This document shows positions 10,508 to 13,956 of a stretch of 64,000 bases of DNA, piece by piece. Source of the stretch: an uncultured Gemmatimonadaceae bacterium. Its GTDB lineage: Bacteria > Gemmatimonadota > Gemmatimonadetes > Gemmatimonadales > Gemmatimonadaceae. The notes beneath the pieces are model-generated. The model was given only the letters and a program-made list of their open reading frames with translations, was not told where the DNA came from and did not search any database. The position numbers were made by a program, and so were the translations under genes. The stretch lies in the NCBI GenBank assembly GCA_963781585.1, contig CAWAGQ010000004.1:672001-736000 (forward strand). The letters are read 5' to 3'. How positions within the stretch are numbered: position 1 is the first letter of the stretch; the number at the start of each line of letters is the position of its first letter.

Positions 10508-11080
10508 ATGCTCCGTCTCACCCGAGCAACACTGTCTGTCGCTGCGCTCCTGGGCATGGCGCAGGTGGCGACCGCGCAGGGCGGCCTCACATCGAACATC
10601 GCAACGGCAACGCTGTCAGCCGCGAAGGCCGCATCGTTGAGCGTGTCGATCACGTCGGGCGCCTCACAGTCGATCGCCAATCTCGTCGACAACGCGGTGA
10701 ACACCTTTCCCGGCGCAACGCCGGTGGTCATTCAGACTGACTGGGACATCAATCCGAGTGCCGCGAGCATCTCACTGGTGGGCTACTTCAGCGCGCCGTC
10801 GCAGGCCCTCGCCAACGGCACCGACTACATCACGAGCAGCCTGATTCTCGGCCGCGTGTCCACCGGACTCCCGACCTCGTTCACGACCTTCACGCAGAAC
10901 GCGCTTGCTGGCGTCGGGACGGCGGGTGGCAGTCTCGTCCTGTTCACGCAGGCGATCAACGGCACCAACAAGCAATCGTCGCGAACGGACAATCTCGAGC
11001 TGCGGATCGACATGACCGGCCAGACGGCCACGGCCGGCACGTACACCGGAACGCTGAACCTCCGGCTCGTCACGCAGTGA
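10508..11080 (+). CDS. Secreted beta-rich protein, putative pilin/fimbrial major subunit
   Basis: GGAGGT SD, Sec signal peptide, T/S/A/G/N-rich mature region, C-terminus AGTYTGTLNLRLVTQ like archaic/alternative chaperone-usher pilins. Confidence 0.65.
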   Translation: MLRLTRATLSVAALLGMAQVATAQGGLTSNIATATLSAAKAASLSVSITSGASQSIANLVDNAVNTFPGATPVVIQTDWDINPSAASISLVGYFSAPSQALANGTDYITSSLILGRVSTGLPTSFTTFTQNALAGVGTAGGSLVLFTQAINGTNKQSSRTDNLELRIDMTGQTATAGTYTGTLNLRLVTQ

Positions 11081-11814
11081 TGACCGGCAACGACGTCCGA
11101 TGGCTCGCGGTGACTTCCCGGATCGTTCGGGGCCTGCTGTGGACCGTCGTTCTCCTGCCAGCCACGGCGCGGGCGCAATCGATCAGCCCCGCCGTGGTCG
11201 AATACCGTGAAGCGGCACGCGGCAAGTTCGAGCTCGCCAACAAGACCCTCTATCCCCTGCGCGTGGTGCTCGACCCCCGCGGATTCGTGGTGGAGGAGTC
11301 GGGCACACTGATCGACGAGCCGCTTGACACCACGGTCGTGCATCTCCGTCTGTCGACGATGAGCTTCACCATTCCACCGCTGCAGAACTACGCCGTGTAT
11401 TACGAGGCGAGCGCCTCGAAGTATCCCGCGTGGTTCCAGATCATCAGCGCGATCAGCGGCGGGCGGACGGCCGAGGGACTGAACGTCCGCATCGAGATGC
11501 CGCACGTCGTGTACCTCCTGCAGCGCCGTTCCCTCGCGCGCGCCGACGTTTCGATCCGGGGACTGTCGTACGATTCCGTGGGGCACCGCGTGCTGATCGA
11601 CGTGGAGAACATGGGGAGCGCTCTGGGGCGGATCCTTCGTACGGAAGTGACGGATGGCAGCGGCGCGCGGGCGGTTGGGCCAGCACTGCCACTCTTTCCG
11701 AACAGCCGGCGACATATCGAAATCCCGTGGAACCATCCCGAGTCGGCGGAACGGGTGATCCTGCGCTTCGCGGGGTTTTCGGTCGAGGAACGCCGACGGG
11801 CGGCGTCCAACTGA
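11077..11814 (+). CDS. Putative periplasmic pilus chaperone (PapD-like, two beta domains)
   Basis: Signal peptide, then SISPAVVEY...FELANKT...SFTIPP, and second domain IDVENMG...LFPNSRRHIEI; overlaps the upstream stop. Confidence 0.6.
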   Translation: MMTGNDVRWLAVTSRIVRGLLWTVVLLPATARAQSISPAVVEYREAARGKFELANKTLYPLRVVLDPRGFVVEESGTLIDEPLDTTVVHLRLSTMSFTIPPLQNYAVYYEASASKYPAWFQIISAISGGRTAEGLNVRIEMPHVVYLLQRRSLARADVSIRGLSYDSVGHRVLIDVENMGSALGRILRTEVTDGSGARAVGPALPLFPNSRRHIEIPWNHPESAERVILRFAGFSVEERRRAASN

Positions 11815-11815
11815 G

Positions 11816-13429
11816 GTGGGCAGACTGCCGCGTCGCTCCGTTCTTGCTGCCGTCATCGCGTGCGCCGCACCTTCGGCGCTCTCCGCTCAGGTCATTCAGA
11901 TTCAAGGGACAGCCTCGTCCCTGGAGTCGGGGGTCGGCGCCGCTCTGAAGGTGTGGGGCGACGGTTACGACGGCGGTGCGGGCATCGGGTACCTGCGTGG
12001 GCTTCGCACGAGTCTCTGGGTGCGACGCGCGATCGGGCGCGACACGCTCCGGCTGGGCGACGATGTCATTCCCCTGCGCCTCGCGTCCGATGTATTCGGC
12101 TCGAGTCCGGTGATTCTCGCGCAGGGGGCAGGGTTGCGCGCGCGCCGCGGCCGCACGGCCTTCAGCGTGTTCGCCGGCGCGAGTGCACGCGCCCTGCCCT
12201 CTCCGCTCTTCACATCGACAGAACGCGAATCACCGCTGGGCTACCTGCACGGCGAGAGCGCGATCTCTCCGAGGATTTTGCTGGCGGGAGACGCGGTGGT
12301 GGCACACCGACAGACGCTGCTACTGAGCTCTTCGTGGCAGCCGGTGTCGGACATGACGGCAAGCGCCTCCGCCGGCGTGGGTGGCAACGCGCCGTATGCC
12401 GCGTCCGCGTTCCGGGTTCACCGGGAGCGCTTCGACGTCACAACGGCGTACGTGTATCACGGAGACGCCTATCGGCGCGCCGATGCGCCCCTCAGCGTCC
12501 ACGCCGAAGTCGAAGGGGCGAATGCATCCGCGACCTGGCGCCCCTTGCCTTCGTTCGCCATCAACGCCGGCCGACAGCACTTCCGGCAGGACAGCGTGGT
12601 GGCCGGCATGTCGCCCAATGCCACATCCACTCAGGCGTCACTCTCCTGGGCCTCAACCGCATTGGCCGCGTCGCTGGGTGGCTTCGAGTCGCAGTCGGAT
12701 TCCGTGCGCAATTTCAGTTCGTTCGCGTACCTGCGGCGCGACCTGACTTCGTGGTTTCGGGGGGATCTCTATCTGCTCTCGATCTGGGAGCCGCATCGGA
12801 TCCGCAGCACGACCCCGGTCCTGTACCTGCGCGAAAGCCTCTCGCCACGCGCGGAGTTCGTTCAGGTCGTGACGCGCAGCGACCGTGGCACGACGGTCAA
12901 TTTCGGCGGGGCCCTGCGGGGCGGACTCAGCGAAGTGAGCGTCGACTATCAGGTCGTGCACTCCCCGCTCCGCGTCAACGACCCCTTCCAGACGTCCATG
13001 GGGCTGACGGTGAGGCTGCAGCTTGGCGCCCTGCAACTTTCCCTCGGGAGCTTCGTGGCGCCCGACGGCCGCACGTACTTCTCGGCGTCGGGCGGGAGCT
13101 TTCTCTATCGCGCGGCGTCATCGATGGGGCGAGCCGAGGGGCTGCTGTTCCAGTTCGACCGATTCCTCGTGCGGGGACGCGTGGTCGACGAGGAGGGCAA
13201 CCCGGTCGAGGGTGCCGCCATTCGACTGGGAGACGAGACCGTCTACACGAACCGCCGCGGTGAATTCTTTCTCCGACGCCCCTCGGCGCAGGCGCTGCCG
13301 CTCACGGTGCTGCCAACGGACTTTCTGCTGCCGGGAACCTACGAGACCGTCAGCGCGCCCGAACAGGCGACACCGGCACGAGAGGGACACGAGCAGCCGG
13401 TCACCATCGTGGTCCGCAAGCGCGCCTAA
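11816..13429 (+). CDS. Outer-membrane beta-barrel-like protein with C-terminal carboxypeptidase-regulatory-like domain; putative usher
   Basis: Signal peptide, many amphipathic beta strands, C-terminal VRGRVVDEEGNPVEGAAI...TNRRGEF. Confidence 0.55.
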   Translation: MGRLPRRSVLAAVIACAAPSALSAQVIQIQGTASSLESGVGAALKVWGDGYDGGAGIGYLRGLRTSLWVRRAIGRDTLRLGDDVIPLRLASDVFGSSPVILAQGAGLRARRGRTAFSVFAGASARALPSPLFTSTERESPLGYLHGESAISPRILLAGDAVVAHRQTLLLSSSWQPVSDMTASASAGVGGNAPYAASAFRVHRERFDVTTAYVYHGDAYRRADAPLSVHAEVEGANASATWRPLPSFAINAGRQHFRQDSVVAGMSPNATSTQASLSWASTALAASLGGFESQSDSVRNFSSFAYLRRDLTSWFRGDLYLLSIWEPHRIRSTTPVLYLRESLSPRAEFVQVVTRSDRGTTVNFGGALRGGLSEVSVDYQVVHSPLRVNDPFQTSMGLTVRLQLGALQLSLGSFVAPDGRTYFSASGGSFLYRAASSMGRAEGLLFQFDRFLVRGRVVDEEGNPVEGAAIRLGDETVYTNRRGEFFLRRPSAQALPLTVLPTDFLLPGTYETVSAPEQATPAREGHEQPVTIVVRKRA

Positions 13430-13956
13430 CGTGCCTCCCCGACCGGACCGATGAGGTGCAGCACATCCTCGCGATCGGCGACCAACCGACCATTCACATC
13501 GAACAGTTCGTACCGCAGGCAGGCCGCCCCGGTCGCCTGTCCGGGTTCCGCGATCACGCGATATCGGACCACGCGCTCCGCGGTCGCTGACAGCATGACG
13601 GGGCTGGCCCCGGCCGCCTCGGGAACGATGACCAGACGGCCCGCGCTGTCGCGAACGAACAGGCGCGTCACGTTGTCGCCGCGGCTGCACTGGCCCTTCG
13701 TCAGGCCGAGGACATCGCCAGTCCTAACGACAAACGGTATCGGCGCGGTGACGTCCAGAACCTGCGGGCCCACCCGGCGGACGGTCTCACCGGTGGGGAG
13801 TCGTGGTTCGGGGGCGCTGATGGGCGCGGTGGCAGGCGGCCGCTTGACGACGATCAGGGTTACTTGCGCGACCCTGCTCCGGGTTGCCTGCGCCCTGGTG
13901 CTGACGGGGGTCAGCAACAGGCAGGCGACCAGGGTAACGGGGAGCGTCCGCTGCAT
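13426..13956 (-). CDS. Secreted hypothetical protein convergent on the pilus-like operon
   Basis: Signal peptide MQRTLPVTLVACLLLTPVSTRA; beta-rich; two Cys in the mature part. Confidence 0.6.
   Translation of the reverse strand: MQRTLPVTLVACLLLTPVSTRAQATRSRVAQVTLIVVKRPPATAPISAPEPRLPTGETVRRVGPQVLDVTAPIPFVVRTGDVLGLTKGQCSRGDNVTRLFVRDSAGRLVIVPEAAGASPVMLSATAERVVRYRVIAEPGQATGAACLRYELFDVNGRLVADREDVLHLIGPVGEAR

Follow-up and report, generated by a model that had tools for sequence, protein, structure and literature searches.

A predicted chaperone-usher-like operon with a reduced usher in an uncultured Gemmatimonadaceae bacterium

The textbook usher cycle relies on an N-terminal domain for recruitment, a plug for gating the pore and a pair of C-terminal domains. 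Can a pilus be assembled by an usher that has neither the recruiting domain nor the plug? This question is raised by a small operon in the 64,000-nucleotide stretch of DNA analyzed here (the window), which comes from an uncultured Gemmatimonadaceae bacterium. An initial annotation had described three tightly coupled genes with signal peptides, encoding a pilin, a chaperone and a short usher-like barrel, and all of its open reading frames (ORFs) and quoted motifs are present; the three genes stand as described, but a fourth, convergent gene at 13426-13956 was overlooked. We think it probable that the operon assembles a pilus by donor-strand exchange through a reduced usher, predicted as a 26-strand barrel that lacks the N-terminal domain and the plug and has one C-terminal domain. 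The system is a real, conserved and apparently undescribed variant of the chaperone-usher pathway. Its genes are the following (aa, amino acids; Ig, immunoglobulin).

10508..11080, + strand: pilin-like subunit, 190 aa; signal peptide 1-23, mature residues 1-19 a free donor-like N-strand, incomplete Ig-like sandwich
11077..11814, + strand: PapD/CsuC-like two-domain periplasmic chaperone; predicted donor strand 135-142
11816..13429, + strand: short usher-like outer-membrane barrel, 537 aa; 26 predicted strands (25-432), linker 434-447, C-terminal beta-sandwich 450-536
13426..13956, - strand: fourth, convergent gene, 176 aa from ATG 13956; secreted beta protein, evolving fast, with a mature N-terminus similar to the donor strand of the pilin

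The reduced usher

The classical ushers FimD and PapC have five domains and a 24-strand barrel (PMC10673952, PMC3394950; these and the other papers below are cited from excerpts). The window barrel was modeled with a predicted local distance difference test (pLDDT) of 87 and a predicted template-modeling score of 0.71, the first and last strands being the least confident. The model runs through 26 consecutive strands, starting at mature residue 1 and ending at 432, followed by a low-confidence linker and a single sandwich (450-536). In Foldseek, the 16 best listed rows are all FimD or PapC (best E 1.7e-13), and the first non-usher appears at E 7.7e-7. Similarly, VIA aligned residues 26-428 end to end with FimD 139-656 (Z 17.3, root-mean-square deviation [rmsd] 5.0 over 333), with PapC less than one Z unit away. 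The claim that the third protein is a membrane barrel is supported by this model, for which ushers are the closest structures. Examined as a test of barrel closure, covariation across 192 barrel sequences (effective number 81) averages 1.28 for adjacent strands versus 0.74 +/- 0.32, and the pair of strands 1 and 26 ranks 87 of 299.

The absence of the N-terminal periplasmic domain, proposed in the initial annotation, can be seen both in the model, where the barrel opens at mature residue 1, and in the family alignment, where 50 residues or fewer precede strand 1 in 117/117 database homologs. The extent of the reduction had been understated, as the plug and one C-domain also appear to be absent and the model has 26 strands rather than the 24 expected of the FimD/PapC family. 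The segment in which a plug would be expected measures 29 residues, with no insertion, in all 192 aligned barrel homologs (drawn from overlapping sources). Its register was set by a match between barrel residues 75-109 and the FimD hairpin just before the plug, which is not significant alone (E 0.29) and is backed by the end-to-end structural alignment. This pre-plug hairpin contains the invariant residues D76, R79, G81, D83 and D92. As a control, the longer usher-like family of Gemmatimonadota described below aligns across the FimD plug with E 0.0044. The C-domain of the window barrel best matches the first C-domain (CTD1) of this longer family (E 5.5e-5, compared with 0.0028 for the second), and the model holds just this one, CTD1-like, domain. 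The family alignment leaves no space for an N-domain or a plug, and the usher, as modeled, departs from four features that define the architecture of FimD/PapC ushers but retains their fold.

Sequence profiles see little of this likeness. The PF00577 usher profile does not match the window barrel, and PDB sequence searches with five family profiles (A1, A2, A3, A5 and A7) returned chance matches or the generic C-terminal sandwich only. Profile-profile alignment of the whole usher without structure is weak, with the post-plug segments out of register with FimD. The carboxypeptidase-regulatory-like domain noted initially at the end of the barrel is a real match (residues 452-498), though at 26.9 bits it lies below the Pfam cut-off of 32.3. 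Some homologs carry additional C-terminal domains. Three proteins (P0299-P0301) are short ushers fused to an OmpA-like domain, with PF00691 in all three, and the same fusion was read by eye on the short ushers of L019, L020, L022, L106 and L121, while the tail of L025 looks frameshifted; these fusions suggest a cell-wall tether. The short ushers of L127, L146 and L151 have approximately 230-270 additional C-terminal residues that resemble, by eye, two more sandwich domains.

Pilin, chaperone and comparison with known systems

All matches to the pilin are single-domain proteins of approximately 180-200 aa. In the model of the mature pilin (pLDDT 94), residues 1-19 have no partner strand and the chain finishes on its last strand, so the protein is not predicted to be a complete monomer, in line with the initial annotation. 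Pilins of the chaperone-usher pathway are characterized by an Ig fold that is incomplete and by a donor strand at the N-terminus, and both are found in this predicted structure. Foldseek ranks FimG best (E 7.5e-4), followed by FimA, PapA, FimF and other donor-strand subunits, with TM-scores of 0.4-0.5. VIA places TLP-1b first (Z 8.3, rmsd 3.4, 149 aligned) and CfaE next (7.3), with CsuE, FimG, CS17 and CsuA/B at Z 6.4-6.6 amid unrelated sandwiches. From these two rankings, the predicted structure appears to be a donor-strand pilin fold roughly equidistant from all solved clades. Both ends of the pilin are conserved, the N-strand as Q-x-G-L-x-S-x-x-x-x-V-x-L/I-x-A-x-K and the last strand as G-x-Y-x-G-T-L. 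The pilin family gave no profile alignment with FimA or EcpA. The window pilin does not match SCPU (PF05229), and 19/144 family members match it weakly (best E 1.1e-4).

The chaperone resembles PapD-family clusters in the Atlas, at 0.94 to a cluster auto-named PapD family and at 0.88-0.90 to PF00345 clusters. A diverse chaperone profile has a single PDB match, CsuC (E 1.5), and aligns colinearly with EcpB over 177 columns (E 0.027); no profile alignment with FimC was obtained. This is indirect evidence, from sequence, that the protein has a PapD-like two-domain fold, as first proposed. A model of the pilin-chaperone complex scored 0.74, compared with 0.12 for the best control; the mark used is reached by 116/157 solved pairs and 2/215 mismatched pairs, counts that are a rough guide here, where alignments of our own were used. 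The runs share at least 78% of contacts, and partner pLDDT is at least 85. In the complex, pilin 157-164 pairs with chaperone 135-142, both numberings rising, which indicates a parallel arrangement, and chaperone residues 34-41 as well as domain-2 residues 187, 199-205 and 216-217 also contact the pilin. Parallel pairing of a chaperone strand with the last strand of the pilin, if the model is right, is the typical geometry of donor-strand complementation.

Classical systems (FimD/FimC/FimA and PapC/PapD) are alike in combining pilin, chaperone and barrel in one operon and in parallel donor-strand complementation, as modeled here, and they supply the best structural matches of the window barrel as well as the Foldseek matches of the pilin. 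They differ in the five-domain usher, as excerpted above, compared with the predicted 26-strand barrel with no N-domain, no plug and one C-domain. In addition, the window operon has no PF00577, PF00345 or fimbrial Pfam match, and no two-domain adhesin was seen. Known pilins often carry a disulfide, whereas the window pilin has no Cys. Environmental TLP-1 fibrils (CryoSeek, PMC11494351) provide the best VIA match and have a secreted subunit with an N-terminal donor strand, but this subunit has 237 residues and 11% identity to the window pilin, and its Z of 8.3 is modestly above background. The excerpt points to a Flavobacteriales-like model for TLP-1, describes it as uncharacterized pili and names no assembly genes (PMC11494351). 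The WxL/DUF916 Elr pilus of gram-positive bacteria is also alike, in chaperone-guided donor-strand exchange without a classical usher, and tip-less operons exist; it differs in its membrane-anchored chaperone, sortase anchoring and lack of an outer-membrane barrel (bioRxiv 10.64898/2026.10.17.759780). No WxL or DUF916/DUF3324 Pfam matches were found among members of the window family.

Literature searches, restricted to open-access papers, turned up no account of either the family or an usher without a plug. Archaic systems are listed in proteobacteria, cyanobacteria and Deinococcota (PMC10104325), while a TCDB survey gives ushers as 830 +/- 32 aa, with listed phyla that exclude those considered here and, in its excerpt, nothing like the short-usher family (PMC4827864). 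The excerpt of a nanowire preprint likewise describes nothing like it.

Locus, distribution and the fourth gene

The three genes are tightly coupled and flanked on one side by a RecQ-like gene in divergent orientation and on the other by a convergent ORF (neighbor names were read by eye). For the pilin, ATG 10508 is favored over ATG 10490 because GGAGG lies just 5' of it; the protein ends in TQ, two residues beyond the end quoted earlier. The chaperone likely starts at ATG 11080, given the TGATG overlap with the pilin stop and a database copy of 244 aa, and the barrel ORF begins 2 nucleotides past the chaperone stop (a 1-nucleotide gap). The fourth ORF is readable from 14079. By eye, all three operon proteins have a signal-peptide-like end of the form A-x-A followed by Q, and the Gln behind the cleavage site is kept in 143/144 pilins and 90/91 chaperones. 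In fact, a mature start at Gln behind an A-x-A site is found in all four window proteins and is conserved across their families. These Gln starts recall the N-terminal pyroglutamate rules known in other phyla. Pfam and NCBIfam scans of all four proteins gave nothing above cut-off. No sigma-70-like promoter was found at the locus, and the one terminator-like match, within the barrel gene, is at chance level. The window genome (93.5% complete) contains a single copy of each operon gene, and a profile search of it found no PF00577 usher.

How widespread is the arrangement? Database relatives number 545 for the pilin, 63 for the chaperone and 125 for the barrel, and the chaperone family has 451 representatives at 50% clustering. 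The relatives that have names are Gemmatimonadota, and the chaperone profile matches 28/401 genomes in a sample of this phylum. The Atlas contains look-alikes both of the barrel (0.98-0.99; 514-577 aa, with up to 531 members) and of the chaperone (0.94), and those with a known phylum mostly carry the label Acidobacteriota; this range is taken solely from Atlas labels, because look-ups of 20 distant chaperones gave a taxon for one. A plasmid tblastn search with the barrel and one distant chaperone as queries had no match.

Chaperone and pilin are also present at 29/29 loci found with the barrel profile, where two to four pilin paralogs occur. Two of these loci (L015 and L029) are cut by contig ends, and one (L027) has its whole operon frameshifted at several places, reflecting decay or assembly error. 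A quick FastTree chaperone tree, which served only to choose a second clade for a metagenome scan, led to 279 confirmed stretches, and among the best 80 loci kept the pilin and the barrel are each found in 71, with all misses at contig ends. The proposal that the genes co-occur elsewhere is well supported by these counts. Gene order could be counted at 50/119 loci, those having sufficient flank and a complete barrel, near-duplicates not being collapsed. With P for pilin, C for chaperone and U for usher, the orders were PCU 14, PCPU 12, PPCU 12, PCPPU 4, PPPCU 4 and other 4. The exact three-gene order of the window is therefore the commonest (14/50) and its minimal form common, and conservation of the family and its gene order exceed chance. 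No recurring two-domain adhesin was seen among the flank clusters listed, which come from noisy clustering. At L001-L017, a pilin paralog directly before the usher has an atypical N-terminus containing proline and forms a class of minor pilins; it is a candidate tip or initiator subunit and is absent from the window genome. Shortened pilin-like ORFs were noted at L020, L022 and L143.

Other chaperone-usher-like operons occur in the phylum. One (L074:6563-10907, genome G126) has two short pilin-like genes, a chaperone and an approximately 830-aa usher-like gene. This longer family has an N-region, a plug and two C-domains, is found in 102/401 Gemmatimonadota genomes and is nearly invisible to PF00577; this query did not find the long-usher gene in the window genome. 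In three genomes (G319:C89, G031:C83 and G215:C7), it lies 2-4 kb from the chaperone of the short-usher operon, making the two pilus operons neighbors in some genomes. Two further loci (L060:5089-7104 and L061:5388-7394) have the same pilin and a divergent chaperone, with a different, approximately 640-aa barrel-like protein as third gene, which shares the C-domain alone. A conventional archaic-type operon (L073:4607-9283, G249) contains a pilin, a chaperone, a PF00577 usher and a two-domain adhesin, and is the sole PF00577 match above cut-off in the 401 genomes.

The fourth gene is more variable in position. Homologs adjoin the barrel gene at 15/29 named loci, at 2/10 further genome loci and in one same-genus genome. 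Its profile matches 11/401 genomes, of which 10 are real, all within the 28 operon carriers and unlinked in six; a match in G315 (L208) was dismissed as spurious, and a partial match in G249 was also rejected. With an extended profile, full-length matches were found in 12/27 operon-positive and 0/33 operon-negative genomes, the negatives being hand-picked, and within one genus in 9/14 and 0/6, respectively; 9 of the 12 matched genomes were in the seed, and related genomes are not independent. The next-best genome-wide matches of this profile are mostly N-terminal and fall at the operon's pilin genes. Fourth-gene and pilin profiles match only over the N-strand and the end of the signal (E 8.9e-6). 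Once the signal and the shared Gln are taken away, 11/17 fourth-protein N-termini lie beyond the 99th percentile of shuffles when scored with a pilin donor-strand matrix, compared with 0/90 chaperones and 1/111 barrels. The conserved last-strand motif of the pilin is absent. Codon positions compared with the same-genus homolog (41/43/56) have a mild third-position excess. We dropped the notion that an extra last strand always lets the fourth protein complement itself, as unlinked forms end earlier.

By analogy with PapH, FimI and ElrB, we tentatively propose that the fourth protein is a candidate terminator or anchor, possibly doubling as a plug in trans that corks the pore. PapH and FimI are donor-strand-bearing subunits that stop the growing pilus and anchor it (PMC10673952). 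Both are ordinary pilins, chaperone-bound and with a closed pocket, whereas the fourth protein is pilin-like in its N-strand only and is encoded on the opposite strand or unlinked. ElrB, the role of which parallels the one proposed here, has no pilin domain but donates a strand, and is itself a proposed terminator (bioRxiv 10.64898/2026.10.17.759780).

Proposed assembly and its alternatives

How could such a system build a fibre? All parts would be exported by Sec, and the chaperone would lay its donor strand along the last strand of the pilin, filling the open groove as modeled. Because the N-terminal domain is absent, the single CTD1-like domain would likely be the sole periplasmic docking site, holding the chaperone-capped fibre base beneath the pore, and chaperone-pilin complexes would come directly from the periplasm with no hand-over step. 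The N-strand of each incoming pilin would then displace the chaperone, and the linear polymer would thread through the barrel. Without a plug there would be no adhesin-triggered opening, which agrees with the lack of two-domain adhesins seen at the loci. The resting pore may be shut by the conserved strand 5-6 hairpin together with the strand 13-14 loop, or by a resident subunit. Where present, the fourth protein could donate its strand to the last pilin; having no conserved chaperone-binding last strand, it would stop further growth and serve the fibre as anchor or cork, a step we think somewhat less likely than not. Since one pilin type suffices in the window genome, the fibre is likely a homopolymer without a tip, serving in surface attachment or as biofilm matrix.

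Several points weigh against this reading. The evidence for the folds is wholly predicted, fibre formation is a proposal from structures, and matches to known families at the sequence level are weak or fall short of significance. Foldseek TM-scores of the barrel are only 0.35-0.48, and in VIA the ushers are tied, to within 1 Z unit, with MtrB (Z 16.6, rmsd 6.6 over 350). Its geometry being a known one, the pilin-chaperone model may have passed by likeness to solved chaperone-pilin pairs. The fourth gene is found in 0/80 metagenome loci and is missing in 15/27 operon-positive genomes tested. In PapC, moreover, pilus formation reportedly requires the plug, and the N-domain is where subunits are received (PMC3394950), so simple deletion of these parts from a classical usher should not work.

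The link to archaic (Csu, CupE, SCPU) and alternative (Ecp, CFA/I) clades, drawn in the initial annotation, holds in part. In its favor are the weak SCPU matches, the CsuC and EcpB alignments and the contacts that both chaperone domains make with the pilin in the complex model. The carboxylate anchors of non-classical chaperones are CsuC Arg89 in domain 1 and Arg174 and Tyr196 in domain 2 (EcpB Arg148 and Tyr169 for the latter two), and the chaperone superfamily has an invariant strand-D1 proline, CsuC Pro59/EcpB Pro60 (PMC4654587). Mapped through the weak alignment to CsuC/EcpB, one of these residues is kept: R185, in 90/91 chaperones, corresponds to CsuC Arg174/EcpB Arg148. The others are further points against. 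Arg89 maps to position 121 (V/T/A/S/Q), Tyr196 to P205 (81/91) with its neighbor F204 (76/91), and the superfamily-invariant proline to position 94 (A/T/E/S/V). The protein would act like a chaperone-usher chaperone, yet it falls outside the archaic/alternative class as defined in the excerpt of PMC4654587. The true archaic operon, with its approximately 800-aa PF00577 usher, is separate and confined to 1/401 genomes.

Could the missing functions reside elsewhere? It is possible, though we think it unlikely, that the usher is split or oligomeric and its hand-over logic conventional, with entry and plug functions supplied in trans by the fourth protein, an unlinked gene or the C-domain of a neighboring barrel. 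Such an arrangement would suit the requirement of PapC for plug and N-domain (PMC3394950), the three homologs with sandwich-like extensions and the donor-strand-bearing fourth protein, which tracks the operon even where unlinked. However, the fourth gene is not universal, no neighbor recurs across clades among the flank clusters listed, and the window genome has no PF00577 usher. We give less credence still to a barrel that is a passive exit pore and anchor, with chaperone-primed pilins self-polymerizing into loose matrix fibres or capsule. A precedent is ElrD with ElrE, as ElrD ladders arise without other operon factors (bioRxiv 10.64898/2026.10.17.759780). The barrel has no catalytic accessory domains and the closest pilin match, TLP-1b, is an environmental fibril, but the usher-type pre-plug hairpin with its invariant residues and the CTD1-like domain suggest a docking role.

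It is very improbable, in our view, that this is not a fibre system at all and that a large porin is corked by a periplasmic beta protein folded by the chaperone. MtrB is corked in trans by its partner. Its tie with the ushers in Z and the lack of a plug in the barrel would fit; ushers nevertheless have lower rmsd and far better Foldseek E-values than MtrB, the nearest folds of the subunit are polymer-forming pilins, and most loci hold two to four pilin paralogs, nearly all with a donor-like N-terminus. The initial annotation had itself named four outcomes that would speak against a pilus (a complete pilin monomer, a second protein with no PapD-like fold, a third that is not a membrane barrel, and genes that do not co-occur elsewhere), and none of these was found.

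Assembly of a donor-strand-exchange pilus through a reduced usher is thus the reading we prefer, and its significance extends beyond this locus. A natural family without three of the five usher domains makes the minimal needs of donor-strand exchange directly testable, as it does the question of what keeps so large an outer-membrane pore sealed when there is no plug. Because the Pfam and NCBIfam models of ushers, chaperones and pilins do not see the family, pilus surveys overlook it in uncultured phyla that are abundant. It is also a candidate origin for environmental fibrils that are as yet unassigned. The three-gene, Cys-free, single-pilin system also offers a simple platform for protein-fibre engineering. 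In its broadest form, the proposal is of an undescribed, widespread chaperone-usher clade in Gemmatimonadota, and probably Acidobacteriota, with a two-domain usher, no need of a tip adhesin and, in many lineages, a separate donor-strand protein serving as terminator and plug in trans; we place its chances a little below even. If true, hand-over by the N-domain and gating by the plug would be dispensable additions in textbook ushers, and the family a model for an ancestral or minimal usher.

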